From the IMG/VR virus record IMGVR_UViG_3300048817_000099: a stretch of DNA of 20,000 bases; one strand, written 5' to 3'. The notes below the pieces were generated by a model that worked only from the letters and a program-made list of their open reading frames with translations, made no database searches and was not told where the DNA came from. The stretch comes from an uncultured virus (IMG/VR IMGVR_UViG_3300048817_000099) (Duplodnaviria > Heunggongvirae > Uroviricota > Caudoviricetes). Position numbers and translations under genes: made by a program. This document shows, piece after piece, positions 4,178-18,633 of the stretch. How positions within the stretch are numbered: the first letter of the stretch is position 1; the number at the start of each line of letters is the position of its first letter.

Positions 4178-4470
4178 CCAAAGACGACGACGTGGCAAAC
4201 GACGACGGTCGGGACTGGCGAACAATCGATATCGTCAACGACGGCGTGCTGTGGCTGGTGAACCGCACGGTGTTCCACCCACGGGGATATGCCCTCGCAT
4301 TCGACCCCGAGTCCGGCGAGTTCGGCATATACGGCGACGGGTCGGAGCCATGGCGATTTGAGATTGACGACGATGTAGAGCAGACACGGTTCGATGCCGT
4401 GCGTCGACTGATGGGTGGTCCGGTCCATGACACCGGACCCGAACTAAGGGAGAATGCACCCGATGACTGA
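4174..4470 (+). CDS. Hypothetical phage protein
   Basis: GTG start overlaps the portal stop (GTGA). The GVLWLVNRTVFHPRGYALA segment looks like a conserved small actinophage protein. Confidence 0.7.
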   Translation: MTKDDDVANDDGRDWRTIDIVNDGVLWLVNRTVFHPRGYALAFDPESGEFGIYGDGSEPWRFEIDDDVEQTRFDAVRRLMGGPVHDTGPELRENAPDD

Positions 4471-7276
4471 TCTATTGACCCGCGATGCCATCATCGCCAG
4501 CTTCAACGCCGAACAGGAACCGCTGACAGCCGCCGCGTTGAGCGTCAGTTACGAGACAATCACCCAGGAAGTCCGGGCGTACCTGGGCGCCGAGCCCTAT
4601 TGGGCGCTCATCTCCAAGGCCGACCGGGATAAGGCGGCATCGTCGGGCGCCGCGATGCCAGATGGTGGATTTCCGGTCCTTTCGTGCTCAGGTGAGAACT
4701 CGGTCGACTCGGCCATCCATGCCGTGGGGCGGGGCAGCGCCGGGCACAACGCAATCCGAAAGCACATCATGAAGCGGGCCTCGTCCCTCGGCTGTGCCTC
4801 GAAAATTCCCGACACCTGGGGGGAAGACGGCAGCATCAAGTCCGACTCGGCCGCCGAAGCCATCACGGCCGCAACGCCTCCACCGCCCCCACCGGCGGCT
4901 CCGGTGGCAAAGGCTCCGCCAGCACCGGGAGCGCCACCCGAGAAGCCCGCGCCCGATGCCAAGACCCCACCCAAGGCCGGCGAGGGTTCGGTAGCCGACG
5001 CCGAGGTCGACGCAGGTATGTCCGTCCACGTCGACACGGTGAACAAGGACATCGCCGCGGCCATCGCCCTGCAGAAGACCGACCCGGGCACGGACAGCGA
5101 GGCGGCCGACACCAAGGTCATGACGATTCTGGAGCAGATGCAGGCGCTGGGGAAGCAGCTCGCCGCCGCCCAGGACGCCGATGCCAGCGAGAACCCGCCG
5201 TCGAAGTCTGCGCCAGCTCCGCCCAAGACGCCACCTGCCGCCGACGCCCCACCTGCCAACGGGCCACCTGCTTCTGACCCGCCGCCGGTCATGGCCGAGG
5301 GCGCTCTTGGGGCCAGTTGTGACTGTGGGGCCGTGGGATGCACCAGCCAGCCTGGGTGCCCGGCCTGCGCCGACCACGTCTGCGCCTGCAGCACCATGAC
5401 CGCCGCTGGACCTCCGACGAGCTCGGAGACCCCAGGGAACGCCGTGGGCATTCCCAACGACGCCGACGACAACGGCCCTGGACCCGGCGACATCGAGGCC
5501 GACGTCATCTGCGAGAACCCCGACTGCGGGCACATGGCCGGCGTGCACCAGGACGACGCCGACCTGGGCGGCAACTCCGGAGCCTGCCAGACCCCGGGCT
5601 GCACCTGCCCGGGCATGATTCCCCCTGGCGACCAGGTGAACGGGCCGAGCGACGACACCCCAGTGGGCCAGGACGACGGTGGAGGCCCGAACAACGCCGG
5701 AGGGGACGACGACGCACCCGGCGTTCCCAAGATGGCCGCCGACTTCGCTCCGGGCGACATGCCGCCCATCGGTGGGGACGGACCGACCGCTCCCGCCCCC
5801 GACGCTCCCGAGATTGAGGGCGCACCGGCTCCCGAGCTACCCCCGTTGGACCCGAACCCGTCTATCACCGTGGGGCCAGCCTTCGCCATTCCCGTGGCCT
5901 GGATTGAGGGTGTGGAGACCGGGGACGGCCGGATGATCCAGCCCGGTGCCCTGACCTGGCGGACACCGCCGCTGCCCCTCATGGCCATGGTCACCAGTTC
6001 GCACGACCCGAGCGGCATGTCCCCCAACGACCCTGCTGTCTTGGTCGGGCGTATCGAGCAGATCAGCGTGGAAGGTACAAACGGGACGGCCAGCGGTCAT
6101 CTGTTGACCACCAAGCACGGCATGGACTTCGCCCAGGTTCTCGAGCAGATGGGCCGCTATGGGGTGTCCATCGACGTGGGCGACGCCGAAATCCAGCAAA
6201 CCGGAGTGCCGGACATCACGCTCCCGCCCGGCGCCAGCCAGTTCGACGCCCCCATCCTCGACGTGCTGGTCAAGGGCGTCGTGATGGCTATGACCGCCTG
6301 CCCGATGGCCGCGTTCCAGGGGGCCTACATGGTCCTGGGTGACGGGTCCAACATCCCCGACGCCAAGGTGCCTCCTGCTCCCGAAGGCTCGAACATGGCC
6401 ATCCACTACGTGGACGAGATCCCCTGTGTGCCCTGCGGCGATGACTCGCTGGTGGCCGCGGCCGTCGACAAGCCCTCGCTCCTACGCCCGCCCGGCGCCT
6501 GGTTCGGCAACCCCAACTTCGGCAAGGACGCCGATGGCAAGGAAATCGCCCCTCACCTCGACGACCGGCTGAGCGAGACCATCGACCCCAAGTCAGGCCG
6601 ACTGTCGGGCAAGTTCGCCTGCCCCATCACCATCACCGACGACGGCGAGGTCTTCGGTCACATCGCCCAGCACGGCGTGTGTCACCAGTCCCCGCAGTTC
6701 CTCAACAACGGCCAGTGCGTGCTGGCCCCGAGGAGCCTGGTCGACTACGCCGCCTTCCACGGCACGGGCAAGGTCATCACCGCCGAGGGGGAGATGATTG
6801 GGGTGGGCCGGATGACGGCCGACACCGGGCACGCTTCGGACTCCCCGGCCGTCGACTTCCGCCGGGCCCTCGCCCATTACGACAACTCGGGCCTGACCGC
6901 GGCCACGGTGCGAGCTGGCGAGGACGAGTTCGGTATCTGGGTCCACGGCTCGCTCCATCCGAGCACCAGTCCCGAGCAGGTCCACACCATGCGGGTCAAC
7001 CCGCCGTCGGGCGACTGGCGACCCTTCGGGGCCGGGCGTGAGCTCTGCCAGGTCCTGTTCGTCAACCACCCCGGGTTCCCGATGGTGGTGGCCGACAAGC
7101 GGCCCGCTACCGGCGAAATCACCCGACTGGTGGCCGCTGGCGTGCCCTGCTTCTCCCTGCCCGAGCCGGTGGCGCTGTCGCTGGAGGAGCGGGTGGCCAT
7201 GATGGAGCGGGCCAACAAGCCGCTGCTGGGCCTGGCCAAGGAGCAACTGCGCCACCGCAGGGCAGCCATCTCCTGA
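4463..7276 (+). CDS. Capsid maturation (prohead) protease, multidomain
   Basis: EGVETGDGRMI.PGALTWR..PLPLM, SSHD, VGRI, GVSID protease-domain motifs. C-terminal domain GHIA..GVCH...AHYDN...RAGEDEFGIWV.G...SGDWR...VN.PGFP. N-terminal AMPDGGFP...AI.AVGR...RKHI.KRA..LG...IP..W domain. AAGGGAG at 4446-4452 favours ATG 4463 over 4454. Confidence 0.85.
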   Translation: MTDLLTRDAIIASFNAEQEPLTAAALSVSYETITQEVRAYLGAEPYWALISKADRDKAASSGAAMPDGGFPVLSCSGENSVDSAIHAVGRGSAGHNAIRKHIMKRASSLGCASKIPDTWGEDGSIKSDSAAEAITAATPPPPPPAAPVAKAPPAPGAPPEKPAPDAKTPPKAGEGSVADAEVDAGMSVHVDTVNKDIAAAIALQKTDPGTDSEAADTKVMTILEQMQALGKQLAAAQDADASENPPSKSAPAPPKTPPAADAPPANGPPASDPPPVMAEGALGASCDCGAVGCTSQPGCPACADHVCACSTMTAAGPPTSSETPGNAVGIPNDADDNGPGPGDIEADVICENPDCGHMAGVHQDDADLGGNSGACQTPGCTCPGMIPPGDQVNGPSDDTPVGQDDGGGPNNAGGDDDAPGVPKMAADFAPGDMPPIGGDGPTAPAPDAPEIEGAPAPELPPLDPNPSITVGPAFAIPVAWIEGVETGDGRMIQPGALTWRTPPLPLMAMVTSSHDPSGMSPNDPAVLVGRIEQISVEGTNGTASGHLLTTKHGMDFAQVLEQMGRYGVSIDVGDAEIQQTGVPDITLPPGASQFDAPILDVLVKGVVMAMTACPMAAFQGAYMVLGDGSNIPDAKVPPAPEGSNMAIHYVDEIPCVPCGDDSLVAAAVDKPSLLRPPGAWFGNPNFGKDADGKEIAPHLDDRLSETIDPKSGRLSGKFACPITITDDGEVFGHIAQHGVCHQSPQFLNNGQCVLAPRSLVDYAAFHGTGKVITAEGEMIGVGRMTADTGHASDSPAVDFRRALAHYDNSGLTAATVRAGEDEFGIWVHGSLHPSTSPEQVHTMRVNPPSGDWRPFGAGRELCQVLFVNHPGFPMVVADKRPATGEITRLVAAGVPCFSLPEPVALSLEERVAMMERANKPLLGLAKEQLRHRRAAIS

Positions 7277-7506
7277 TGGAGGAGTGGAAGCACCCCGACC
7301 CCGGATGGTGGAAACGGGCGCCGATGTCCAAGTCAGCTTCGCCCTTCGACCTCTGCGACGAGTGCGGACATGTTCGGTTCCTGCACGGGAAGGGTTGCAT
7401 GTCAACCAGCGCTTCTCTCGACGCTCCCCGTGGGTACGGCTGCATCTGCTCGAACACCGCCACGTCGAACCGATGGCACCAGCCCGTATCCGTGATGACT
7501 GGCTGA
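7276..7506 (+). CDS. Small Cys/His-rich putative metal-binding protein
   Basis: ATG overlaps the protease stop (TGATG). Contains CDECGHVRFLH..C...CIC. Confidence 0.6.
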   Translation: MEEWKHPDPGWWKRAPMSKSASPFDLCDECGHVRFLHGKGCMSTSASLDAPRGYGCICSNTATSNRWHQPVSVMTG

Positions 7507-7574
7507 CAGCGGTGGGACGGCGCCGGTTGCCCGTCCCTCTCTGCGGTTGGTCAACGGCTGGTGAGCCTCCCGAC

Positions 7575-7706
7575 ATGCGACCCTGGTGGGTAGGGGCCGA
7601 ACAACCGCCGTCAGCGCCTCCGATGCCCAAGCGATGTCCGGTGTGCGGTGGCCGGATGATTGACGACTTCTGCTCGGCGTGCGATGCCGCGGCTAGGGGG
7701 TCCTAG
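7575..7706 (+). CDS. Small zinc-ribbon protein (43 aa)
   Basis: MRPWWVGAEQPPSAPPMPKRCPVCGGRMIDDFCSACDAAARGS with two CxxC motifs. GGTGAG lies 9 nt upstream of the ATG. Confidence 0.45.
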   Translation: MRPWWVGAEQPPSAPPMPKRCPVCGGRMIDDFCSACDAAARGS

Positions 7707-8095
7707 AAATTGCAGTTGCACCACTGGTGAGCGCCGCACTTCGGGCATGGGTAACAGGCAGCGCAGAGACCGAGCATGAACGGGTGCTCCGGTTTGTGAT
7801 GTAGCCACAGCCGCCATCCCTGGGCCTTGTGGCACTGCCACCACCAGTCGGGCTTCCAGAGGAAGTAGGGCCGCATGTGATAGCCGAACTTGAACAGACC
7901 CATGCGCTTCAGGTCCCACCGCAGGCGGTAGGGCAAGACATCACGCCACCGCGGGAGTTTGTAGACCGCCGGCCCGCCGCCGCTCCAACTGACCGAGCCA
8001 CCGCAGCTGGTGATGCCCGATACGTACAGGAACGAGGCGACGTGGCCTGTCAGACTCCACCGTGAGTAGTGCCAGCGGGGCGGCGGGTCAGTCAT
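7703..8095 (-). CDS. Hypothetical Trp-rich protein with C-terminal Cys cluster
   Basis: ORF from ATG 8095 (MTDPPPRW...) ending CAACYPCPKCGAHQWCNCNF. Its stop overlaps the convergent ORF. The ORF track extends it to GTG 8251. Confidence 0.55.
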   Translation of the reverse strand: MTDPPPRWHYSRWSLTGHVASFLYVSGITSCGGSVSWSGGGPAVYKLPRWRDVLPYRLRWDLKRMGLFKFGYHMRPYFLWKPDWWWQCHKAQGWRLWLHHKPEHPFMLGLCAACYPCPKCGAHQWCNCNF

Positions 8096-8111
8096 CGGGC
8101 CTCTTCGGGGA

Positions 8112-8243
8112 TCAATCCCACGTCGCTTCCTCCGCCGCCATGAAGTTCCATAGTCCGCAATGGCGGGATGGCCGCTCGGTGCAATCTTCGGGCGTCGTTT
8201 CACCGCATTCACAACGTTCCGGTTCGTCCTCGTAGGCCTCCAT
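8112..8243 (-). CDS. Small acidic Cys-containing protein
   Basis: MEAYEDEPERCECGETTPEDCTERPSRHCGLWNFMAAEEATWD* (alternative ATG at 8255). Lies directly downstream of the predicted leftward promoter; below the ORF-track cutoff. Confidence 0.5.
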   Translation of the reverse strand: MEAYEDEPERCECGETTPEDCTERPSRHCGLWNFMAAEEATWD

Positions 8244-8256
8244 ATCCTCACCCATA

Positions 8257-8284
8257 ATCGTAAACGTTAGCGCTGTTTGGTCAA
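8257..8284 (-). promoter_or_regulatory. Putative SigA-type leftward promoter
   Basis: TTGACC-N16-TACGAT on the minus strand in an AT-richer intergenic gap. Confidence 0.55.
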
Positions 8285-8290
8285 GGGTGC

Positions 8291-8319
8291 TTGATTTCCC
8301 AGTTTGGGCAGGTCACACT
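8291..8319 (+). promoter_or_regulatory. Putative rightward promoter for the capsid/tail genes
   Basis: TTGATT-N17-CACACT. The -10 box is flanked by the inverted repeat GGCAG/CTGCC (8307-8325). Confidence 0.45.
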
Positions 8320-8325
8320 TCTGCC

Positions 8326-8414
8326 AGGTGAGTTCTGGCCTTGGAGCCAAGCCCACCGATGATTTCAGGTCTTAGCGCCTGGTCGCCCTAACAGGTACCC
8401 CACGCGCTAAGGAG
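8326..8414 (+). promoter_or_regulatory. Structured 5' leader of the major capsid gene with anti-SD
   Basis: Two similar hairpins. CTTAGCGC (8371-8378) is the exact reverse complement of GCGCTAAG (8404-8411), which overlaps the SD TAAGGAG. Confidence 0.45.
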
Positions 8415-8424
8415 CCGAAATCAA

Positions 8425-10320
8425 ATGGACCGTATCCAGGAACTGCTCGAGCGTCTGTCCGACCTCTCCGACGAGGAACTGACCGAGCTGAACGGTCTTC
8501 TCGCTGAGGCCTACACGGCCATCGACTCGTCCGACGAGCCGGCCACGGCAGAGCAAATCTCCCAGATGAACACCCTCGTCGAGGGTCTGGAGACCGTGGC
8601 CGCCGAGAACACCCGGCGCACCGAACTGGCGACCCAGCGGGAGCAGCAGAGGGCCGAACTGAAGACCCGGGCCGATGCGCTGCTCAACCCACCTGAAGAG
8701 GGCGAGACGCCGCCCGAGGATGCCCCGACCGACGAGGCCCCGGCGGAGGACGAGGAACTGGACGAGGACGGCAAGCCGAAGAAGAAGGTGACCGCCGAGA
8801 CCCCTCCGGCCGCTGACGAGACCCCGACCGAGGCTCCGGCAGACAGCCCGCTCATCCCGGTGAACGCCAGCACGGAACCCCCACGGGGCGACCCCGCTGC
8901 CGGTGATGGCATGGTCGAGCGCATGGCGGCCGTGGGCGGCCCGGCCAAGCCGAGTCCGACCCAGAATCAGACCGAGACGTTCGGGACCACGCTGGTTGCC
9001 GCCGGCGGTCTGCGGGGCATCGGCATCAACACCCCGTTCGAGGACCGTTTGCAACTCGGTCAGGTCATGGCCGATCAGATCGACGCCTTGGGCCAGCCTC
9101 ACGGTGAGTATCACCACCCAGCGCTGATTGCCACCGCTCGGTGGGAGTACCCCGAGGATCGGCGCCTTACCGGCGACGCCAACGCCAACTCGGAGAAATT
9201 CAACGCCATCTGCGCCATCGAAGCGCAGCGAGTGGACCCCAAGGACACCACGGCGCTTGTTGCAACCGGAGGCGTGTGCTTGCCGGTCAATGTGGATTAC
9301 GCCGTGCCTACGTGGTCGACGGCCGTTCGTCCGTTGCGCGACGGACTCCCTGCTTTCCAGGCCGACCGCGGTGGTCTCCGTTACGTGACCCCGCCGGACA
9401 TCGGCGTCCCCCCGTTGCAGGGCACGGCCAGTGGTGCCGGTCTCTCCACCAACACCTGGACCGAGGCCACCGACGCCAACCCCGCAGGAGCGACCAAGCC
9501 GGTCTGGGAAGTGACCTGCGGCACGGAGAACCTGGTCTACGTGAACGCCATCACCACGAGGGTCCAGTTCGGCAACATGCAGAGCCGGTTCGCCCCTGAG
9601 CAGGTGGCCGCAAACACGCAGCAGGCCATTGCCGTCAGCGCTCGCCAGGCCGAGCTCGAACTGCTCACCCTCATGCTGAGCGTCAGCTTCTGCAAGGAGG
9701 TCAGCATCGGCACCCAGTACCTCGGCGCACTCCGCGATGTCCTGTCGGCCGTCGACCTACTCAAGTCCCAGTACTGCGACTCGCACCGGATTCCCGAGTC
9801 GGCATCGTTCACGGCCATCTTCCCGCAATGGGCCAAGAACATGTTCAAGGCCGACCTCCTGCGTGAGACCGCCCACGACAACGCCGGCCCCCGAGACGTG
9901 CTGGCCGTGACCGACGCCCAGATCGAGGCGCTCTTCAGCGTCCGCGGGGTGAACGTCATCTGGACTTTGGAGGGTGTCAAGAGTGGCACCTACGGCAACG
10001 TGACCGTGGGGACCAGCCAGCAGTTCTCCGTGTTCACCACGGGCAACACGCCCCAGTGGCCTGGTCAGGCATCCAGCGCCGCGTTCGAGTTGCTCTGGCT
10101 GCTCTACGTGGAGGGGACCTACCAGTTCCTCGACTCCGGCCGGCTCGACCTCGGCGTGGTGCGGGACAGCATCCTGGACAGCACTAACGATTACGAGACC
10201 TTCGTGGAGACCTTCGAGGGAGTAGCCGGTCGAGGCATCGACGCCTACGGCGTGGTCCAGACCCTGCTCCCGAACGGTGGTTCGGCAGGAACCGTCGCCG
10301 TCGGCTCCTACAAGGAGTAG
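8425..10320 (+). CDS. Major capsid (hexamer) protein with N-terminal scaffold-like extension
   Basis: Strong SD TAAGGAG. Coiled-coil plus acidic Pro-rich N-terminus, then ALVATGGVCLP...Y, RDGLPAFQADRGG..Y, KP...VTC, GN...RF.PE and LDLGVVRDS.L..TNDY..FVETFEG motifs of this capsid family. Confidence 0.9.
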   Translation: MDRIQELLERLSDLSDEELTELNGLLAEAYTAIDSSDEPATAEQISQMNTLVEGLETVAAENTRRTELATQREQQRAELKTRADALLNPPEEGETPPEDAPTDEAPAEDEELDEDGKPKKKVTAETPPAADETPTEAPADSPLIPVNASTEPPRGDPAAGDGMVERMAAVGGPAKPSPTQNQTETFGTTLVAAGGLRGIGINTPFEDRLQLGQVMADQIDALGQPHGEYHHPALIATARWEYPEDRRLTGDANANSEKFNAICAIEAQRVDPKDTTALVATGGVCLPVNVDYAVPTWSTAVRPLRDGLPAFQADRGGLRYVTPPDIGVPPLQGTASGAGLSTNTWTEATDANPAGATKPVWEVTCGTENLVYVNAITTRVQFGNMQSRFAPEQVAANTQQAIAVSARQAELELLTLMLSVSFCKEVSIGTQYLGALRDVLSAVDLLKSQYCDSHRIPESASFTAIFPQWAKNMFKADLLRETAHDNAGPRDVLAVTDAQIEALFSVRGVNVIWTLEGVKSGTYGNVTVGTSQQFSVFTTGNTPQWPGQASSAAFELLWLLYVEGTYQFLDSGRLDLGVVRDSILDSTNDYETFVETFEGVAGRGIDAYGVVQTLLPNGGSAGTVAVGSYKE

Positions 10321-10330
10321 TCGGTCGTTC

Positions 10331-10419
10331 ATGCGCACTACGTTCCTGGCTCCGGCCCGTCCCCGCATCGCTGGTGGTGGTGTGCTGGGACGCGGCCGGG
10401 CTGGGACTGAGGTGCGCGT
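10331..10419 (+). promoter_or_regulatory. Long imperfect hairpin covering the SD of the next gene
   Basis: Nested pairings ATGCGCAC/GTGCGCGT, TCCTGGC/GCTGGGA, CCGGCC/GGCCGG and CGTCCC/GGGACG. The 3' arm includes GAGGTG (10409-10414). Confidence 0.6.
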
Positions 10420-10422
10420 CTG

Positions 10423-11958
10423 ATGGCCATGACCCCGCGCCTACTCGCTCCGGTGGCCGAACCGCCGCCGCCCAAGCCGCCTCAGTTGAACCTCGTCGCG
10501 TCGAGCCTCATGCCCGATGTCGACACCGACACCTTCGGTCCCGACGACGGCCCGTCTCTTGCCGCGTCCATCGGTCTGCACGCTCGGGTCCCGGTCGGCT
10601 CTGACCGCACCCTCTACGACATCCACCCCGGCGAGTCTGCCTACAGCGAGGTCATGGAGTACCGCAACGGGCTGATTGCCGCGGTCGGGGTCATGTCCGA
10701 GATGGAGCTCAAGCAGGTCGAGCAGGACGCCGGGGTCACCGTCGATTCGCTGCCCAAGTCCATCTTCGCGGCCACCTCGTCCGAGGACCGCTGGACCGGC
10801 GGTTTCGCCTACGCCCCCGAGAACCAGTACGCCGGCATCCTGGCCGACCCCTGTGGCCAGGTCATCGACCTGCCCTACCTGTCGCCTCAGAACGGCCTAG
10901 CCGCCCCCGCAGGACCCGCCGCCACCCCGTCAATCACCGGTGGTCACCTGACTGCTGCTGCTTCCCCCTACTCCTACGTGGTGGCCGCCGTCGGCATCAC
11001 CGGTGGGCAGGGGACGCCGACAGCCGCCTTCACCGGCACCATCGCCAGCGGAATCGTCGGCTCGAACGCCCTGGCCTGGTCGGCGGTAACCGGTGCGGCC
11101 AGCTACAACGTCTACGGCCGGTTCCCCGGTTCGTACCAGCTCATCGCCAATGTGACCGGGACCAGCTTCACCGACACCGGTGCGGCTGCTCCCACCCTGG
11201 CCGGCCAGTCCGAGAACCTGCCCCAGGTCGGGTTCATCCCCTTCCTCATCCAGGTGCAGGACACCGCCTCGGCCTTCGGGTGGGAGGTCCGTGACTACGT
11301 GGGCCGGGCCATGCGCCTACTGGACAACGCCACCCCGAATGCCCTCGAGCGGGAGTTGTGGACAGGCACGTTCGCCCAGAACACCGAGACCGGCCCCATG
11401 TACCAGTCGGACTTCCCCGGCGGTCTCAACGCCTTCTTCCAGCAGACAGGGACCATCGCTGACGGGGGTTCCGCATTGGCCGCCGTCGACCTCACCCCGG
11501 GAAGCTCGGGCGGGGGCGGCACGCCGTGCTCCATCACCCGCGGTATCCAAATCCTCGAGGACTACCTGGCCAACACCGGCTTCGGTGGACAAGGAATGCT
11601 CCACGTCGCCCCCGAGACCTCTCCCAACCTGCTCGGTGCCCGGCGAGTCGGCTCGCTCCTGCTCTCGGTGATGGACAACATCATCGTGCCCGGCTCGGGC
11701 TACCCGACCTCGGGTTCGACTGGGCCCATCGGCAACTCCAGCGCCAGCCCTGGTGCCGGAAACGCCTGGATCTACGCCACCGACCTCGTCTCCGTGCGTT
11801 TGGACGACCCCATGTTCTGGCCCTCGACCATGGCCGAGGCCACCGACCGCGGCAACTTCGCCAGCCCCAACACCGTCCGCATCAGGGCGCAGCGGGCAGG
11901 CGCGGCCACGTGGGACCAGAGTCGGCTCGCCGGTTGCAGAGTCACCCTTTCGACATGA
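10423..11958 (+). CDS. Second capsid protein (major capsid pentamer-like) with inserted FN3/Ig-like domain
   Basis: Follows the capsid gene. Motifs RWTGG..Y.PE, PF.I, RA.RLL....NALERELW.G, LEDYLA....G..MLH, I.VPGSGYP, WIYAT. Beta-rich insertion at about 10897-11196. Confidence 0.65.
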   Translation: MAMTPRLLAPVAEPPPPKPPQLNLVASSLMPDVDTDTFGPDDGPSLAASIGLHARVPVGSDRTLYDIHPGESAYSEVMEYRNGLIAAVGVMSEMELKQVEQDAGVTVDSLPKSIFAATSSEDRWTGGFAYAPENQYAGILADPCGQVIDLPYLSPQNGLAAPAGPAATPSITGGHLTAAASPYSYVVAAVGITGGQGTPTAAFTGTIASGIVGSNALAWSAVTGAASYNVYGRFPGSYQLIANVTGTSFTDTGAAAPTLAGQSENLPQVGFIPFLIQVQDTASAFGWEVRDYVGRAMRLLDNATPNALERELWTGTFAQNTETGPMYQSDFPGGLNAFFQQTGTIADGGSALAAVDLTPGSSGGGGTPCSITRGIQILEDYLANTGFGGQGMLHVAPETSPNLLGARRVGSLLLSVMDNIIVPGSGYPTSGSTGPIGNSSASPGAGNAWIYATDLVSVRLDDPMFWPSTMAEATDRGNFASPNTVRIRAQRAGAATWDQSRLAGCRVTLST

Positions 11959-11996
11959 CCCTTTTCAACATCAACCCTCAACTGGAGGTTTAACCC

Positions 11997-13223
11997 ATGG
12001 CAGCTCCCCAGGACGGCAGAGCACAGGTATTTGCGGTCGTCACCAGAGTGACCACGCTGGACGTGAACGGGTTCCCCGCCGTGGGGGCCAACGTGTTCAC
12101 GACCAACTCGCTGCTCAAGTGCAGCTTCGCCCCGGCCGAGGAGACCGGTGTCGACCTGGCCACCATCAACGCCAACGGTGACCTCTACAGCCACTACAAG
12201 CACGGGGACATGCCCAAGTACTACACCGTGCAGATCGAGATCGGGACACCCGACCCGATCCTCCACCAGATGCTGGCCGGCGGCACCGTCCTCACCGCTT
12301 CCGGTACTGCTCTCGGTACCCCCACCGGGACCATCACCGCGGTGGGGCAGATCACCCTCGGGTCGCTGCCCGCGGCCACCTACGGCTACCTGGTCACCCA
12401 GTTCAACCAGTACGGCGAGTCCAAGACCGCGGCCGAAGTGACCGGCACGGTTGCTTCGGGTACCTCGGGCACCATGGTCGTCTCCGGCATGGTGGCTGCC
12501 GCAGGTGCCACCGGCCTGAACGTCTACGGGCGCATCCCCGGCGGTGAGCAGTTGCTCGGCTCGGTGCCCAACATCGGGAGCCAGGCCACCGCCGCCGCAT
12601 CGGGGACCGGCACGGTGACCAGCCTGACGGTGACCGCCCTGACCGACGCCATCCCCCAGGGGACCACGTTCCAGATCACCGGGGACACCAACACCACCAA
12701 GATCGTGTTCACCACGACCCAGCCTGCCGGTGTGGGGGCCACCGCCCTCAACGTCTCGGCCAGCCAGTCAATCACCACGACCATCGTGGCCGCCGCCATC
12801 GTCCCCTGCTTCGTCGACACCGGTTCTCTGGTCCCCTCGGGCGGTTACCCCACGGTCGACACCACGGCGGGTCCTGGGGCGGACACAGGGTACGCAGCGG
12901 CCGCTCTGGGTGTGGTCGGCAACCCCAACGGCGTCAGCCTCGAGTTCTGGGGCGCCGCCATCCTGGGTGGGGCCGAGACCCCGAACCTGCCCTACTACCG
13001 CTGGGTCATCCCGAAGGTCCAGAACATCACCGAGGGCGGCCGGACCTTCCAGCCCGCCATCTTGGAGAACGTCTACATGGGCCAAGGGGTGCAGAACCCG
13101 AACTGGGGTGCAGGGCCCTTCGGGGACTGGCAGTTCCCTTCGACCCAGGTGTACCAGTACGCCTCGGCCGGACGCTCCACGCTGCCCGTCGCCGGCTTCG
13201 CCCCTGTGCCCGCAACGGCATAG
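11997..13223 (+). CDS. Major tail (tube) protein with inserted decoration domains
   Basis: SD GGAGG. RVTTLD..G.P, E.G......NANG, PDP.L..ML.GG, GVSLEFW, Y.RWVIP and NPNWG.GPFGDW motifs. Thr/Gly-rich beta insertion at 12312-12824. Confidence 0.85.
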   Translation: MAAPQDGRAQVFAVVTRVTTLDVNGFPAVGANVFTTNSLLKCSFAPAEETGVDLATINANGDLYSHYKHGDMPKYYTVQIEIGTPDPILHQMLAGGTVLTASGTALGTPTGTITAVGQITLGSLPAATYGYLVTQFNQYGESKTAAEVTGTVASGTSGTMVVSGMVAAAGATGLNVYGRIPGGEQLLGSVPNIGSQATAAASGTGTVTSLTVTALTDAIPQGTTFQITGDTNTTKIVFTTTQPAGVGATALNVSASQSITTTIVAAAIVPCFVDTGSLVPSGGYPTVDTTAGPGADTGYAAAALGVVGNPNGVSLEFWGAAILGGAETPNLPYYRWVIPKVQNITEGGRTFQPAILENVYMGQGVQNPNWGAGPFGDWQFPSTQVYQYASAGRSTLPVAGFAPVPATA

Positions 13224-13241
13224 GCTCAGGGGTAGAACCCC

Positions 13242-14108
13242 ATGTCCAGCACGTTCGATACCCCCCGTCTGGGGCCCAACGTTCCGTGGATTTCTGCCTC
13301 CACGGTGCTCGTTCAGGAGCCGTTGCAGGACCTGACCGTCTCGGTGGCCCTGGCCACGCAGATGGCGGTGGTGGCGTCGAACATCTGCTACCGCCTCAGT
13401 CGTCGCATGTTCACCGGACTGGCCGGACCGGTGACTGTGCGACCTCTGGCTCGGCCCACCGACGTTGACACCCGGTTCGGCTATTGGGGCGGCGGTGGCG
13501 CTGGCGGGGGTTATCTCAACGGGGGCCAGTTTGCCGGGGCCTACGGGCAGCAGAGCGGCGGGGTCAACTACTTCGGGTCGTCGAAACCGTCAGAGGTGGA
13601 GCTCGGGGGATTCCCGATTGTGCAGATTCTTTCGGTACTCATCGACGGTGTCCGCATACCGCCCAACGAGTACTACGTCCAGAACCGTCGAGTGCTGGTC
13701 AGGGCGAGGGCCTCAGCTAGTGCGGAGCCGACTGAACGTTTCGGCTGGCCGATGGCTCAGAATCTGGCGTTGCCGGACACGCAGCAGAACACATTCTCGG
13801 TCACGTACCTCTACGGCGTCGCTCCGCCCGAGGAAGGCGTTCTGGCGGCCACGACGATGGCCACGCAGTTGGTGCTCAACGCCATCGGGGAGGACAATTC
13901 GCTGCCACAGCGGGTGACCTCCATCACCCGGCAGGGTGTCACCGTCGCCGTGGTTGACGTAATGGACTTCTTCTCCAAGGGCCTAACTGGCCTTTGGGAG
14001 GTGGACTCGTTCATAGCCGCCGTGAACCCAACCAAGGCCAAGTTGCCGGGGTTGGCCTGGAGCCCAGATGTCGGCCGGCCGAGAAGAATGCCCCCCAGTT
14101 TCAGTTGA
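13242..14108 (+). CDS. Head-to-tail adaptor
   Basis: LS.RMF.G....TVRP, V.IDG..IP...Y, WP..QNL..P....TFSVTY.YG..PP and LPQRVTSITRQGVT...GLTGL.EVD.FI.AVNP signature. Confidence 0.85.
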   Translation: MSSTFDTPRLGPNVPWISASTVLVQEPLQDLTVSVALATQMAVVASNICYRLSRRMFTGLAGPVTVRPLARPTDVDTRFGYWGGGGAGGGYLNGGQFAGAYGQQSGGVNYFGSSKPSEVELGGFPIVQILSVLIDGVRIPPNEYYVQNRRVLVRARASASAEPTERFGWPMAQNLALPDTQQNTFSVTYLYGVAPPEEGVLAATTMATQLVLNAIGEDNSLPQRVTSITRQGVTVAVVDVMDFFSKGLTGLWEVDSFIAAVNPTKAKLPGLAWSPDVGRPRRMPPSFS

Positions 14109-14148
14109 CTGCCGTAGCATGACCCCAGACCGATAGGAGACCTGACCA

Positions 14149-14631
14149 ATGGACGCCTCAATCTCAGACGACCCACGCGCTCCGGATAGCGACTTCGACG
14201 ACCCGGACCTCGTCCGTTGGCGCAATCTGGGCGCCACCCCCGACGAGGCCAAGACCCTCGGTTCCACGGGACTCGACTCGGTCGACGACGCCACGCTCCT
14301 TGACCGCCTGACGGCTCTGAGGGCCTCAGATGGACCGAAGGACGACGATGGGGCCGACACCGGCTCTCAGGGCACCACAGGGGGCGCTCCTGACGACGGC
14401 GAGCCACTGACCCTGCTGGAGCAGCGGGCCAAGGCCGACGCCGGCGAGTGGACCCCAGCCGAACCCCTCACCGTCGCAGGCGTCCAGTACCCGGTGTGGG
14501 ACCTGGCCTACGCCTGGGTCGGCACCCGCATGGGCGACGAGGTCACCGGCGCTCACCTGCTGGCCCCGAACCTGGAGGCCCTGGCCGAGTCCATCGCCAT
14601 CCGGGTGGCTGCCACCAAGTCGCAGGAGTAA
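14149..14631 (+). CDS. Acidic hypothetical protein
   Basis: SD AGGAG upstream. Fills the gap in the structural operon; codons end mostly in G/C. Confidence 0.75.
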   Translation: MDASISDDPRAPDSDFDDPDLVRWRNLGATPDEAKTLGSTGLDSVDDATLLDRLTALRASDGPKDDDGADTGSQGTTGGAPDDGEPLTLLEQRAKADAGEWTPAEPLTVAGVQYPVWDLAYAWVGTRMGDEVTGAHLLAPNLEALAESIAIRVAATKSQE

Positions 14632-14637
14632 CCGCTG

Positions 14638-15189
14638 GTGGGGTTCAACCCGGCCACCCTGATTCCAGCGCCTCGGTTCAACATCCAGGCTGCCAGCGAC
14701 GCTCTATTCGGAGCCACGGTGGCCCTCATGGGGTTCTACGGTGCTGTCGACCTCCCCACGCGCCAGGGTTCGGTGCCCGGCAGTGAGCCGGCCTGGGACG
14801 ATGAGCAGTTCACCATCAATCACCTGAACATGACCATGGGCCAGCCGGGGATTGAACCGAACCAGGCGGTCAACCCGACGCAGCTGCTGTTCTTCTACAA
14901 CTTCGAGCTGCTCCTGCTCCGCAAGGTGGAGACCATCACCGGCAAAGGGAAGCAGGGCGGAATCCCCAGTGCCATCAAGCTGACCGCCGACGCTCAGACC
15001 ATCGAGCAGGACGGGGTGGCGATGCTCCAGGCCGTCGTGGCCATGCACCTCAACGGACTCATCGTGCCGGTGGAGGTCCCGTTCAAGTACGCAGCGCCGA
15101 CTGCGCTCACTCCGGCGGGCGGACTGTCGGGGAACAGGATGGGGGTTTCCTTCCAGGCCGGGTTCAGCCCGCAGCCAGGCGACTACTGA
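14638..15189 (+). CDS. Probable tail terminator/completion protein
   Basis: Position and size fit. LP.RQG.VPG..PAWD..Q, LLR and P.GG..G motifs are typical of this family. The stop overlaps the next ATG. Confidence 0.6.
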   Translation: MGFNPATLIPAPRFNIQAASDALFGATVALMGFYGAVDLPTRQGSVPGSEPAWDDEQFTINHLNMTMGQPGIEPNQAVNPTQLLFFYNFELLLLRKVETITGKGKQGGIPSAIKLTADAQTIEQDGVAMLQAVVAMHLNGLIVPVEVPFKYAAPTALTPAGGLSGNRMGVSFQAGFSPQPGDY

Positions 15190-16190
15190 TGCCCTACACC
15201 GCTGTTGAGATTGCTGCGATGCAGACCGATCAATCGGCAGTCACGTCCGCGCAAGCGAAGGTCACCGCGGACATCGCTGCCGGTGGTTCGTCGTCAGTTC
15301 TTCGCCTGGCGTTCTACTATCCGTGGTTCCCCAACGCATGGAATCAGCAAGGCTTCGATCCCTTCTCGCACTACCAGCCGACGCTGGGGTACTACTCGTC
15401 GTCCAACCCAGCGGTGTTGGCCAATCACGTAGCAGCCTTGCTATACGGGAACATGGATGCAGGGATCATTTCCTGGTGGGGGCAGGGCAGCCAGGAAGAC
15501 ACCGTGGTCCCGCTTGCCTTGGCGGCTGCACACGGCACATCGTTCCAGTGGACCCTGTACTACGAGGCACAGGGAATCGGTGACCCAGACGTGGCCCAGA
15601 TTGAGAGCGACCTGGCCTACATCAAAGAGCACTACGCCAGCGATCCGAACTTCTTGCACATCGACGGCAAGCCGGCCCTATTCGTCTACGCCCAGTCGTC
15701 GGACGCCTGCCCGATGGCGACGACGTGGAGCACGGCTAACGGGACCGAAGACTTCTTCGTCGTCCTGAAGGTGTTCCCCAACTACGCGACGTGCCCGAAT
15801 CAGCCCGAAGGCTGGCATCAATACGGCCCGGCGAGCGCCATCGACCATCAGGTCGGCTTCAGCTTCACCATCTCCCCGGGGTACTGGAAGCGGACCGACG
15901 CTACGCCTCTGCTGGTGCGTAATTCGACGATCTGGGCTCAGAGCATCCAAGCCATGGTGGCCAGTGGTGAACGGTTCCAACTGGTCACCACGTACAACGA
16001 ATGGGGCGAGGGCACTGCGGTCGAGAGCGGGACGCTGTGGGAGTCTGCCTCCGGGTTCGGTATCTACCTGGACGCCTTGCATGAGCTGATCCCGAGCGGG
16101 ACTGCCCTGGCCAGTTTGCAGAACGACCAACGGGCGGCTGTTGCGGCGGCGGCAAAGGTCACGAAGGACATCGCTGGGCTGCGCCCATAA
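15189..16190 (+). CDS. Glycoside hydrolase, GH99/GH71-like (endo-alpha-mannanase-like)
   Basis: AFYYPWF, P.LGYYSS.NP, IISWWG, YYE, IDGKP.LFVY, ISPGY and TTYNEWGEGTAVE (intact ExxE catalytic pair). Confidence 0.8.
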   Translation: MPYTAVEIAAMQTDQSAVTSAQAKVTADIAAGGSSSVLRLAFYYPWFPNAWNQQGFDPFSHYQPTLGYYSSSNPAVLANHVAALLYGNMDAGIISWWGQGSQEDTVVPLALAAAHGTSFQWTLYYEAQGIGDPDVAQIESDLAYIKEHYASDPNFLHIDGKPALFVYAQSSDACPMATTWSTANGTEDFFVVLKVFPNYATCPNQPEGWHQYGPASAIDHQVGFSFTISPGYWKRTDATPLLVRNSTIWAQSIQAMVASGERFQLVTTYNEWGEGTAVESGTLWESASGFGIYLDALHELIPSGTALASLQNDQRAAVAAAAKVTKDIAGLRP

Positions 16191-16210
16191 GCAGCAGTAC
16201 CATTCGGTTC

Positions 16211-16510
16211 ATGAAAAGAACCGTCATAGACCAGTGGCTCGGGCCATGGATATCGCAGATCGTCGCCGGTCCCGATTACCAGTCAGGCGACTTGGCCATT
16301 GAAATCGTGTACGACGAGGGATCAGGTTCGGGCACGGTGTCGAGTCACGTTCCGGCCATCTTCCTGTCCCAGTTCATCCCCCCGGGCACAGTGTCATCCG
16401 TCAGCTTCACGCACTACTCCACGCTCAAGGCTGCCGAGGACATAACTGGTGTCGATGAGTTGGACCTGGCCGTGTCGGCCAACAGCCTGCGAAGTGCATT
16501 CGGGTTCTGA
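16211..16510 (+). pseudogene. C-terminal fragment of a phosphoesterase (acid phosphatase/phospholipase C family)
   Basis: D.WL, I.YDEG, HVP.IF.S and FTHYSTLK..EDI.G...L motifs. The N-terminal catalytic portion is absent and there is no clear SD. Confidence 0.65.
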
Positions 16511-16686
16511 TGGCCGAGGGCGAGCTGGTCGACCTGCTCACCCCCATGTTTAGTGGCGACTCGACCGCTGCCCGCAATGGCATTCGGCAAGTCCTCGCCA
16601 TGTCGGACCAGGAAGCAGAGGACTGCCTAGTCCGCTGGTACGGCAACGAGATGCTCGAACTGGCGCGCCGAGGCCCTGATGGCTGA
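16510..16686 (+). CDS. Small hypothetical protein (58 aa)
   Basis: MAEGELVDLLTPMFSGDSTAARNGIRQVLAMSDQEAEDCLVRWYGNEMLELARRGPDG*. Overlaps both neighbours (TGATG and ATGGCTGA); not in the ORF track. Confidence 0.6.
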   Translation: MAEGELVDLLTPMFSGDSTAARNGIRQVLAMSDQEAEDCLVRWYGNEMLELARRGPDG

Positions 16687-17104
16687 CGGGGGCGTCCGCT
16701 TCACCATTGATGGGGCAGCCCTGGCCGAACTACTCCGTGGCCCCGACGGCCCAGTCGTCCAGCATCTCATCCGCCGGGCCGACGCTGTCATCGTCAAGGC
16801 CCGGTCGAACATCCGAGGGCACACCGACGGGCCGCTGGCCAACTCGATTGTGAAGCGGCCGGGGATGTCGGAGGCGGGGCCGTACTACGAAGTGATTGCG
16901 GGGTTGGGACTCTCGCCTCAGTACGCGCTTTTTTATCATGAGGGGACAGGTCCACCTGGCGGTCGTATATACCCGAAGCGGGCGAAGTTCCTCGCATTCA
17001 AGGGGAAGAGCGGCAACATGGTTTTCACCAAGTCGGTCAAGACCTTCGGTGGCAACAAATTCTTGTCCGAGGCCTTGGAAGAAGTAATGGCGTCGGACCT
17101 CTGA
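16679..17104 (+). CDS. HK97 gp10-like neck/tail component
   Basis: G.LANSI, YALFYHEGT, I.PKRAKFLAF, VFTKSV and N.FL.EAL motifs. Confidence 0.75.
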   Translation: MADGGVRFTIDGAALAELLRGPDGPVVQHLIRRADAVIVKARSNIRGHTDGPLANSIVKRPGMSEAGPYYEVIAGLGLSPQYALFYHEGTGPPGGRIYPKRAKFLAFKGKSGNMVFTKSVKTFGGNKFLSEALEEVMASDL

Positions 17105-17117
17105 TCCGTAGACCAGA

Positions 17118-17202
17118 AGCCCGACGCCCCACACCTTGGCTAACCGCAGCGGACCCAACCACACCATGCCTTGGCGTACCAAATCTCACCGTACCAAGAC
17201 GG
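17118..17202 (-). repeat. Array of 17 in-register degenerate pentamers (GNY-NN, consensus GGY-NN); candidate ncRNA
   Basis: The plus strand has C at every fifth position from 17120 to 17200. Minus-strand triplets are GTC,GGT,GGT,GAT,GGT,GCC,GGC,GGT,GGT,GGT,GCT,GGT,GCC,GGT,GGG,GTC,GCT, separated by variable dinucleotides. Confidence 0.85.
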
Positions 17203-17204
17203 CC

Positions 17205-17234
17205 ATTCTAGCTTCCCCGGTCGCTTTACGCTAA
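17205..17234 (-). promoter_or_regulatory. Putative promoter for the pentamer array
   Basis: TAGAAT -10 box (17210-17205) ends a few nt before the first repeat. The -35 is weak (TTAGCG, 18-nt spacer). Confidence 0.5.
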
Positions 17235-17267
17235 CCTTTAAGCCTGAACAGAAAACCCGACCCCGCC

Positions 17268-17435
17268 ATGGTCGGTATCCGGCAGCGGCCGTCCTGTGGT
17301 CACGCCATGTTGGTCGAGTGCCCGCTGACCGCCCGTGATTGGGAGGAAGTCTTCTTCGCCATGGTGGCGTTCCGTGGAGTCTGTCGTTCGGTAAGTGAGA
17401 GGGCGCATCGTCGCGCCGAGGAGTCCCATGCCTGA
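17268..17435 (+). CDS. Small hypothetical protein (55 aa)
   Basis: MVGIRQRPSCGHAMLVECPLTARDWEEVFFAMVAFRGVCRSVSERAHRRAEESHA*. Has an 8-nt ATGCCTGA overlap with the next gene; the start is uncertain. Confidence 0.45.
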   Translation: MVGIRQRPSCGHAMLVECPLTARDWEEVFFAMVAFRGVCRSVSERAHRRAEESHA

Positions 17436-17583
17436 CCTCAAACTGATCAAGGGCGGCAAGCCCGAGCCACCAACGCTTCCCCGATTCTTCTGCCTGAACT
17501 GCGATGCCGAAGCTGGGTCTGAGGAAGAGTTCGCGGCTCTGGGTCATGCTTTCGGCACGCCCTGTCCTGAACGAGGCGCCTAA
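17428..17583 (+). CDS. Small zinc-finger-like protein (51 aa)
   Basis: GAGGAG upstream of ATG 17428. MPDLKLIKGGK...CLNC...H.....C. Confidence 0.6.
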   Translation: MPDLKLIKGGKPEPPTLPRFFCLNCDAEAGSEEEFAALGHAFGTPCPERGA

Positions 17584-18035
17584 CCCGCCTTCCGTCTCTC
17601 CCGCGCCACCTCAATCCGACACTCCCGGCACGCCCACCCGCCAGGCACGTAGATGATGTTCGGCTTCGTGAACTGGTGACCCATGACGCAGTGGCTCCGC
17701 CCCTCGTTCCACTCCGCCAGGTTGATCGACCCCAGCACGTTCTCCACGGCCACCTTCGGCCGGACGTGATCCGGGTTCACGCATAGCCGGCGGGTGCAGG
17801 CGAAGTGCTTGAGCCGTAGACCCTTCGGTATCGGCTTGCCCCAGGCGATCTCCCAGCCCACTCGGTGAGCGTGCGTGTTGTGGCCGTCGCGGTATATCTC
17901 GGGGTAGCCGTCGCCGGTCAGATGACCGGTCCATAGCCAGCACGGTCCGAGGTCGGGGCGCAGATCGGCTATCGGCCCATCGGTATCGACGTTGGCGAAG
18001 AACCGTTCCTCGACTGGGATTTTGAGCCTTGCCAC
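17580..18035 (-). CDS. HNH homing endonuclease with C-terminal zinc-binding domain
   Basis: RFF..VD, CWLWTG....GY, AHRV.WE, H.AC....CVNPDH.......EN and HCVMGH.F...N.......CREC motifs. Probable GTG start at 18035 or 18041 (TAACTT lies 7 nt before 18035, consistent with a leaderless mRNA). Confidence 0.85.
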   Translation of the reverse strand: MARLKIPVEERFFANVDTDGPIADLRPDLGPCWLWTGHLTGDGYPEIYRDGHNTHAHRVGWEIAWGKPIPKGLRLKHFACTRRLCVNPDHVRPKVAVENVLGSINLAEWNEGRSHCVMGHQFTKPNIIYVPGGWACRECRIEVARERRKAG

Positions 18036-18114
18036 AGGCACGAAGTTACCGCGCTTACCGACACCGAGCTTGCCCCGTGTTTCCCTGTCACCACACCACC
18101 GATAGGAGAGACAC

Positions 18115-18633
18115 ATGGTAACCAACGCAGTCGAATCACTCGGGACCTTCGGAGAGGTCGAGGACGAGGAAGACCTCGACGGGCTCGGCGACCCACCGAT
18201 TCCCTTCACGCTGGTCGGCTACGAGGCGAAGAAAGGAACCGACGGCAAGCACAAGCGCCGGGAGTTCACCTTCCACGTCCGTCCGACCGCCGGCTTCGGC
18301 CCGCTGTTCAACGTCCTCCACCACGTCGACGACAGCGGGAAGATTCCCGAGCAGGTGGCGGCCCGGTTCCTTTTCGCCGCCCTGATTGCCGAGGACCAGC
18401 CCCGGTTCACCAAAACGCTGGACGACCCCAGCATCGAGTTCCGGGCCGAGCTGCTCGGTGAGTTCGCCATGAGACTCGGGGAGCGGTATGGCCTGCGCCC
18501 TACCCAGCCGCGGTCCGCACGGCGCAGTGGGCCGCGGCGTACTGGAACGACGTCAACGGCCGGGCGCTCCAGAAAGGCATCGACCTCGAAGCGTGTGACG
18601 CCGCGCACGCGCTCGACATCATCTACTCCATGA
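18115..18633 (+). CDS. Tail assembly chaperone (short form)
   Basis: SD AGGAG; lies just upstream of the tape measure gene. C-terminal YG.RPT.P.S....GP..TG.TST tail is typical of the zero-frame product. Confidence 0.8.
   Translation: MVTNAVESLGTFGEVEDEEDLDGLGDPPIPFTLVGYEAKKGTDGKHKRREFTFHVRPTAGFGPLFNVLHHVDDSGKIPEQVAARFLFAALIAEDQPRFTKTLDDPSIEFRAELLGEFAMRLGERYGLRPTQPRSARRSGPRRTGTTSTAGRSRKASTSKRVTPRTRSTSSTP

Follow-up and report, generated by a model that had tools for sequence, protein, structure and literature searches.

A predicted vrRNA array in an uncultured peat actinophage whose gapped code matches the neck gene of a sibling phage

Phages possess a minimal Cas7-like RAMP protein, Vipr, and the text of three preprints, data tables aside, describes the RNAs that go with it. 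These vrRNAs are small RNAs of about 100 nt that co-purify with Vipr and consist of 9–16 GGY/NN units (at least 4), followed by a structured, invariable 3′ tail; only the fourth and fifth nucleotides of each unit (N4N5) pair with DNA, with one target base being skipped per unit (10.64898/2026.04.26.720920). The same text places the skipped bases on codon wobble positions and the targets in competing phages and satellites, and it distinguishes seven VIPR types, including other handle forms (NNNGG, YNNNG, and NNNNG) and allowing internal degeneracy (10.64898/2026.04.26.720920). A target is called when at least 80% of the NN positions match without gaps, with no self-target (10.64898/2026.04.26.720920; 10.64898/2026.10.15.759431). 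In the SUSP1 structures, as the companion text presents them, G1 is read via hydrogen bonds and the pocket for Y3 excludes purines (10.64898/2026.04.26.720927). In a complete VIPR system, vipr stands next to the guides, usually with vap as well, and related guides keep the handle constant while their NN pairs are hypervariable. Solo vrRNAs are reported from satellites and from 346 VIPR-null enterobacterial phages, that is, from phages with no vipr anywhere in the genome (10.64898/2026.10.15.759431). The worked examples in the text of the three preprints are enterobacterial and Pseudomonas phages, and that text (data tables aside) contains no mention of Actinomycetota, neck genes, or allele-linked guides.

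Here, we describe an array of this kind in a 20,000-nt stretch of viral DNA, called the window throughout, which carries the virion module of a siphovirus at 65% G+C (Table 1). The major head protein shares no more than 35% identity with its counterparts in cultured phages of Gordonia, Arthrobacter, Microbacterium, and Mycobacterium; we therefore take the window phage to be an uncultured actinophage, from peat. Searches of cultured phages for near and for distant similarity returned no match to the array locus. Two other records are related to the window. The first (G001) covers 13.8 kb of the same phage, with 99.99% identity to positions 1900-15674 of the window, and ends before the array. 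The second (G002) is a sibling phage record of 37.6 kb, estimated to be ~71% complete, with shared blocks that are 85-96% identical. Relative to this sibling, the window has a 1.5-kb insert in the middle of the virion module (15192-16669), containing a protein with a GH99-like glycoside hydrolase domain (15189-16190; Pfam PF16317, E 8e-14) and two small ORFs. Downstream of the neck gene, the HNH endonuclease ORF is drawn from a GTG at 18209 and so shares 95 nt (18115-18209) with the beginning of the chaperone-like gene on the plus strand; the true HNH start is probably further in, since the phrog_826 match begins at residue 58.

Table 1. Features of the array locus, the surrounding virion module, and the sibling's divergent locus (window positions unless a locus handle is given)
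Feature	Coordinates	Strand	Basis or remark
Virion module: portal; long portal-/protease-related; major head; head-tail adaptor; neck-like		+	Phage family matches
Tail chaperone-like and tape-measure-like ORFs, after the neck gene			Position and composition, without family match
Neck / tail-completion-like gene	16679..17104	+	Weak phrog_5 match, E 0.006
Mosaic segment unlike the sibling	16912..17578	.	blastn of window against L001: homology ends at 16911 and resumes at 17579
3′ tail: 18-bp hairpin, then AUUACUUCUU	17089..17128	-	18 pairs, 11 of them G-C
Repeat units 13-17 (GCCAA GGTGT GGGGC GTCGG GCTTC)	17116..17140	-	In phase, off-target
Predicted vrRNA repeat units 1-12 (GNY-NN)	17141..17200	-	NN pairs match sibling neck gene
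-10-like box TAGAAT	17205..17210	-	Read directly; places start at ~17198-17200, at unit 1
Terminator-like hairpin and GTTTTCTGTT (T tract)	17257..17275	-	Between HNH gene and array
HNH endonuclease gene	17580..18209	-	phrog_826, E 2.7e-34; same place in sibling phage, 94% identity
Predicted divergent Cas7-like Vipr gene, 227 aa	L137 17943-18626	-	Middle ORF; 196-aa ORF before, 203-aa ORF after

The array consists of 17 in-phase pentamers, read on the minus strand from 17200 to 17116 as GTCTT GGTAC GGTGA GATTT GGTAC GCCAA GGCAT GGTGT GGTTG GGTCC GCTGC GGTTA GCCAA GGTGT GGGGC GTCGG GCT(TC). Within the handle, the first G is present in 17/17 units, a pyrimidine stands third in 16/17, and G stands second in 10/17; seven units therefore have a degenerate second position, and nine of the 17 are strict GGY. 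A fresh reading of the minus strand reproduced the unit counts (17 beginning with G, 16 with a pyrimidine third, 9 GGY) and the list of NN pairs given in the first-pass annotation of this DNA. The two positions that are nearly invariant, G1 and Y3, are the very ones held by the protein in the SUSP1 structures. As a row of tandem 5-nt units, 17 in number, the array fits the repeat form of a vrRNA, the preprints allowing for its degeneracy, and arrays with a degenerate second G are also found in IMG/VR GGY-array loci: L014, which encodes Vipr, and L011, in which no member of the main Vipr cluster (A1, see below) was found.

The array periodicity is far above chance. On both strands of the window, the second-longest period-5 run of G is 10 units as compared with 17 in the array, and a scan of the window for further GNY arrays, a check that the first-pass annotation had suggested for the whole genome, found no other G.Y.. 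run of six units or more. When the window was simulated 300 times with a first-order Markov model, G.... runs reached at most 13 units and G.Y.. runs at most 9 (observed: 17 and 14, respectively), and the analytic expectation for 17 G residues in a row at period 5, counting both strands, is 2e-4.

The array lies within ~475 nt of DNA (17105-17579) that contains no convincing ORF. The ORFs that can be drawn in 17105-17580 have a GC3 of 0.58-0.73, as against 0.75-0.85 in the real genes of the window, and none matched a family; this includes a minus-strand ORF that overlaps the array (17140-17547; GC3 0.59). Low GC3 and the lack of a family match mean that the stretch is non-coding, and a coding reading of 17105-17580 was discarded on these grounds. 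A search for relatives of the 62-aa ORF at 17395-17580 found none, nor did the array stretch contain a tRNA or an Rfam family.

On the minus strand, one encounters in order the HNH gene, a terminator-like hairpin, the TAGAAT box, the array, the 18-bp hairpin, and AUUACUUCUU. The box was found just ahead of the array where the first-pass annotation had described it, with a predicted start at about the first unit. A scan for two-hexamer sigma-70 promoters found 0, so the promoter call rests on the -10 box, and promoters possessing only a -10 element are usual in Actinomycetota. At the far end, the tail hairpin has units 15-17 as its 5′ arm and folds at -38.8 kcal/mol (z = -7.7; 0/200 shuffles fold as well), and the tail extends over the final 16 nt of the neck gene on the plus strand. 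A 20-mer from the tail had 0 matches in the IMG/VR viral_contigs. The terminator-like hairpin upstream would, from its position, separate the transcription units of the HNH gene and the array.

The first-pass annotation had proposed that the NN pairs spell out a target with gaps. We joined the pairs by 0, 1, 2, or 3 wildcards and scanned both strands of the window and of the sibling record (G002). For 16 units, a skip of one nucleotide gave a best score of 24/32 in the sibling (next best, 20/32), whereas skips of 0, 2, or 3 each gave a best score of 19/32; the ungapped concatenation of the pairs, which the first-pass annotation had also put forward for searching, is thus no outlier. With 14 units and a one-nucleotide skip, the best site scores 23/28 (82%) and the next best 17/28. 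The match is concentrated in units 1-12, whose pairs read TT AC GA TT AC AA AT GT TG CC GC TA and agree at 23/24 positions (96%) with the minus strand of the sibling at 27014-27048, one base being skipped per unit. Across all 16 units (27002-27048), the agreement is 24/32 (75%), which is under the published 80% line; units 13-16, which lie beside and within the hairpin, match at 1/8 target positions.

The site is in the sibling's neck gene, and 15/15 of the skipped bases fall on codon position 3. Shuffled controls, both of bases (0/2000) and of unit order (0/2000), never reached the observed score, whether 12, 14, 15, or 16 units were used, and the composition-aware Poisson-binomial expectation over the sibling record rises from 1.3e-9 with 12 units to 2e-6 with 14 and 7e-5 with 16. 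The proposal of a gapped target has therefore held up, in wobble phase and above the shuffled controls that had been suggested for it. Using other informative positions (2-3, 3-4, or three or four per unit) produced no outlier score. As a pattern of 19 specified bases, units 1-10 have a single match in the IMG/VR viral_contigs, namely the sibling's neck site, and 0 in genome_contigs (bacterial and archaeal genomes).

The next consideration is whether the guide would recognize its own genome. The window's neck allele differs from the sibling's in its C-terminal half (protein alignment), and at the homologous site (17006-17040), the guide matches at 16/24 positions, that is, 8/24 of the positions that it reads are different. 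The best one-nucleotide-skip score anywhere in the window is 19/32, and there is no self-target within it at or above the published threshold. Taken together, the repeat form, the code, the wobble phase, and the avoidance of self all agree with the published description, and on sequence grounds the array is assignable as a predicted vrRNA.

Within the neck gene, the target is situated in the 3′ half, in the sole segment in which the two phages diverge. This mosaic segment measures 667 bp in the window as compared with 223 bp in the sibling and comprises that 3′ half, the array, and ~370 nt of additional non-coding DNA. In the sibling, the HNH stop codon is ~20 nt from the end of the neck gene, which means that it possesses neither the array nor the extra 370 nt. 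With 16/24 at its own site against 23/24 in the sibling, the guide adjoins an allele that it does not match, and it does match the neck allele that the window's allele replaced. The guide (17141-17200) and the window's counterpart of its target site share a strand and are some 100-190 nt apart. The placement of a guide beside a gene whose other allele it targets might be a clue to how guides arise or spread. Searches with the neck protein in viral_contigs and metagenome_contigs found the sibling-type allele only and no second carrier of the array.

The two phages were also found together. Ten peat or permafrost DNA runs contain at least half of the sampled locus words. In one of these (X2), 16817-17800 is covered by a single contig that departs from the window at 4 positions, which all fall within 17228-17244 and leave the array untouched; a second run (X7) shows the same four differences, and the array and hairpin are identical in both. 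These differences are 28-44 nt upstream of the array and 18-34 nt upstream of the TAGAAT box. Both runs also carry short contigs of the sibling type, in which 10/10 of the listed variant letters (16708-16786) are those that distinguish the sibling, and in X7, such a contig extends into the sibling-type junction. It follows that the carrier of the guide and the carrier of the target occur in the same samples. Among RNA runs, the contigs of one (X20, for which contigs only were used) cover the locus at 16654-16796, outside the array, and another (X21) contains none of the locus words.

A vrRNA requires a partner protein, and the first-pass annotation had stated that no such gene is adjacent. To assemble profiles, we scanned IMG/VR for eight consecutive GGY handles (GGYNN x7 plus GGY), which yielded at least 134 stretches, 80 of them with flanks. 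After removal of the array ORFs, the largest ORF cluster has members in 56/81 GGY-array loci longer than 2 kb, and in these 56/81, the Vipr gene is within 2.5 kb of the array (both counts among the matches listed). An alignment of 37 of these Vipr ORFs served as the A1 profile, which matches the PDB entry 36pp_D, "SUSP1 Vipr protein," at E 4e-44. Run against a six-frame translation of the window, in which the neighbors of the array are the neck and HNH genes, neither A1 nor a second profile, A2 (described below), found a Vipr (best E 3.3); the statement thus stands for the 20-kb window, where neither profile detected the kind of RAMP/Cas7-like gene that the first-pass annotation proposed to look for. 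A1 also found nothing in the 13.8-kb piece or in the sibling record. Among the matches listed, 25/81 GGY-array loci longer than 2 kb (L002-L081) have no member of the main Vipr cluster in their flanks; some of them could represent additional solo arrays, divergent Viprs, or the ends of contigs. In one locus (L047), a sequence resembling the T-arm of a tRNA comes after the array.

The sibling does possess a locus of its own. A 2.3-kb insert (L137 17249-19661) replaces the 150 bp found in the window at 8103-8253. It contains three ORFs, all on the minus strand, together with a G-rich spacer of 430 nt that has period-5 runs of G. The 227-aa protein encoded by the middle ORF has 84 relatives, mostly metagenomic, with one from Actinomadura. 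The alignment of this family (A2) resembles A1 by hhalign with a probability of 96.3% (E 1.7e-9) over 131 columns, including the glycine-rich loop; the AlphaFold model has a mean pLDDT of 84, and the top listed Foldseek matches in the PDB are chains of Cas7, Csm3, Cmr, and gRAMP-type effector complexes, from E 4e-8. By profile and model, the protein is a predicted divergent Vipr, which makes the sibling VIPR-positive, with a divergent type, whereas the window phage lacks that locus: neither the window nor the 13.8-kb piece contains a vipr gene, and the place of the 2.3-kb VIPR insert is taken in the window by the 150 bp.

Loci of the A2 family have arrays as well. Period-5 runs of at least 9 units occur in 72/80 IMG/VR A2 loci, commonly just upstream of the gene, and are runs of C on the strand read in 424 cases and of G in 67, with none for A or T. 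Only G1 is fixed in their units; the second position is G in 54% of them, and the third is a pyrimidine in 43%. In-phase punctuation of the GTCRR type (mostly GTCGG) accounts for 435/5238 A2 units vs 107/7915 units in GGY loci, and the unit before GTCGG begins with GGG in 160/342 cases vs 1294/5238 overall. We considered whether the window array might be of the A2 type and set this aside as unproven: the 80 A2 loci (L140-L219) have no G.Y.. run of 10 units or more, and position 3 is mostly a purine in the sibling's arrays. In its Y3, the window array resembles the degenerate arrays of the GGY-type loci L011 and L014, not those of A2. The units at 17121-17130, GGGGC GTCGG, do have the form of the GGGNN-GTCGG punctuation of A2 arrays; this ending may be due to chance, or it may hint at processing or loading by an A2 system.

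The sibling's own guides were scanned against the window and the sibling under 13 codes, and nothing stood out; the two highest fractions, 14/16 and 16/18 (positions 2-3), fell in the G-rich end of the HNH gene, look like low complexity, and were rejected. On a wider scale, 150 of the 255 distinct A2-type guides were run against 877 kb of loci under 6 codes, with few hits at or above 0.9, these being CG- or TG-rich. The code (4,2,3) was scanned with all A2 guides of at least 9 units; most A2 guides have 8-9 units, which is too short for the background.

We consider the array to be a working vrRNA gene, with a probability of roughly 0.8, by which a Vipr filament would be guided to the sibling's neck gene and the late operon blocked in mixed infection, while the carrier's own linked allele would be immune. 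An RNA of ~110 nt would start on the minus strand just past TAGAAT, run through the pentamers, and end in the 18-bp hairpin. Vipr would polymerize on this RNA, one protomer per G-N-Y handle, leaving each N4N5 exposed, and the filament would bind double-stranded DNA, skipping one base for every two that are paired. Units 1-12 would in this way specify a 35-bp site in the neck gene of the sibling (92-96% identical elsewhere), and once bound there, the filament would block the late operon of this rival in a mixed infection. The carrier would be spared because its own neck allele differs at 8/24 of the positions read; this allele is located on the 667-bp mosaic segment that also contains the guide. 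Transcription, loading, silencing, and the source of Vipr are what we infer in this account. As for the last of these, supply in trans by a co-infecting phage or prophage has a little under an even chance in our estimation, which places it slightly ahead of a vipr gene elsewhere in the genome of the window phage.

That second possibility deserves attention, as it would make the array a genuine vrRNA but not an orphan: a GGY-type vipr would reside in the ~30 kb of genome outside the window, and the array would serve a complete system as a dispersed guide. The window shows no more than 20 kb of this phage, and the 13.8-kb piece ends at window position 15674; moreover, the strict Y3 (16/17) implies that the partner has a pocket for pyrimidines, a requirement not shared by the sibling's divergent arrays, and a Vipr lies within 2.5 kb of the array in 56/81 IMG/VR GGY-array loci (among the matches listed). 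Against these points, the sibling record (37.6 kb, ~71% complete) lacks an A1-type Vipr, and the preprint text presents arrays either beside vipr or solo in vipr-null genomes, not as dispersed guides. We regard an own vipr gene as plausible, though we would expect to be wrong somewhat more often than right.

The two remaining explanations do away with a functioning guide. If the array were the relic of a lost VIPR locus, no protein would load it and the target match would be a fossil, which would agree with the degenerate second position (7/17), the last four units being off-target, and the absence of a partner gene from the window. However, drift is difficult to reconcile with a match of 23/24 to a phage from the very same runs. 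Other points against a relic are the almost perfect G1 and Y3, the intact -10 box and strong hairpin, and an array that is unchanged in the X2 and X7 contigs while 4 substitutions lie upstream of it; we consider a relic improbable. Lower still is the probability that the locus has nothing to do with VIPR, being instead a cis-antisense RNA, a bidirectional terminator at the neck/HNH junction, or a G-rich structural repeat with a coincidental gapped match. The hairpin over the neck stop codon could indeed terminate transcription from either side, a minus-strand RNA would be antisense to any late transcript that reads through, and GG every 5 nt could conceivably form two-tetrad quadruplexes. None of these would predict an invariant G1 and Y3 with free N4N5, nor a match of 23/24 that follows precisely the published skip rule, keeps the wobble phase, is unique in IMG/VR, and falls in the closest relative, and we give this explanation very little credence.

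One further reading is speculative and, we think, rather unlikely as a whole. The guide and the resistant copy of its target (16912-17578) could form an allele-specific "killer plus immunity" cassette, adjacent to the HNH homing endonuclease gene, which would silence the ancestral neck allele in mixed infections, spread through the siblings in a drive-like manner, and perhaps use the rival's own Vipr. The cue for the last idea is that G1 is the sole fixed position in the sibling's arrays and that the in-phase GGGNN-GTCGG ending is common to them and the window array.

VIPR and solo vrRNAs have already been described; what is offered here is a clear natural guide-target pair in an uncultured actinophage from peat. 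The carriers of guide and target are siblings found in the same runs, and the target is a virion gene. As the carrier's own allele differs exactly at positions that the guide reads, an allele-specific test would be simple, requiring two 35-bp sites and one RNA. The pair raises the question of how guides and resistant alleles become linked. For annotation, it indicates that a single degenerate array with no vipr nearby can be assigned from its target alone.

How, then, does the locus compare with the known systems? The first-pass annotation had linked the array to phage GGY/NN arrays described together with RAMP/Cas7-like proteins, and this link is correct: GGY/NN vrRNAs and their non-contiguous code are the subject of 10.64898/2026.04.26.720920 and its companions. 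Like the vrRNAs of type II VIPR (Escherichia phage SUSP1 and a Pseudomonas fulva prophage; 10.64898/2026.04.26.720920 and 10.64898/2026.04.26.720927), the window array has 5-nt G-G-Y/NN units, a unit count near 9-16, and a structured tail, and its predicted target lies in a competing phage, with a one-base skip in wobble phase and no self-target. It differs from type II in having the second G in only 10/17 units, a plain 18-bp hairpin rather than the SUSP1 pseudoknot, and no neighboring vipr or vap, as well as in belonging to a phage of the Actinomycetota host group and lying inside a virion module.

The solo vrRNAs of VIPR-null SUSP1-like phages and F5 satellites, as described in the preprint text, are similar in having no vipr nearby and a close relative that bears VIPR (10.64898/2026.10.15.759431). 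In both cases, the predicted target is in a relative and the match to self is below that to the rival. There are also differences from what that text describes. Solo vrRNAs sit where vipr-vap1 was deleted, whereas the window guide is at another locus. Their targets are vipr, further vrRNAs, satellites, or host repeats, whereas the window guide is predicted to target a virion (neck) gene. Unlike them, the window guide is linked to a copy of its target that has diverged and does not match it, and the Vipr of the relative belongs to a divergent family whose arrays have no Y3 constraint.

A more distant parallel is found among the archaeal viruses, in which Medvedeva et al. in 2019 reportedly found mini-CRISPR arrays without cas genes that are aimed at close relatives; these are said to use contiguous CRISPR spacers together with the Cas proteins of the host. 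The window array shares with them the possession of the guide part alone, the targeting of sibling viruses, and effectors that would be made elsewhere, and differs from them in being built of pentamer handles with a gapped code.
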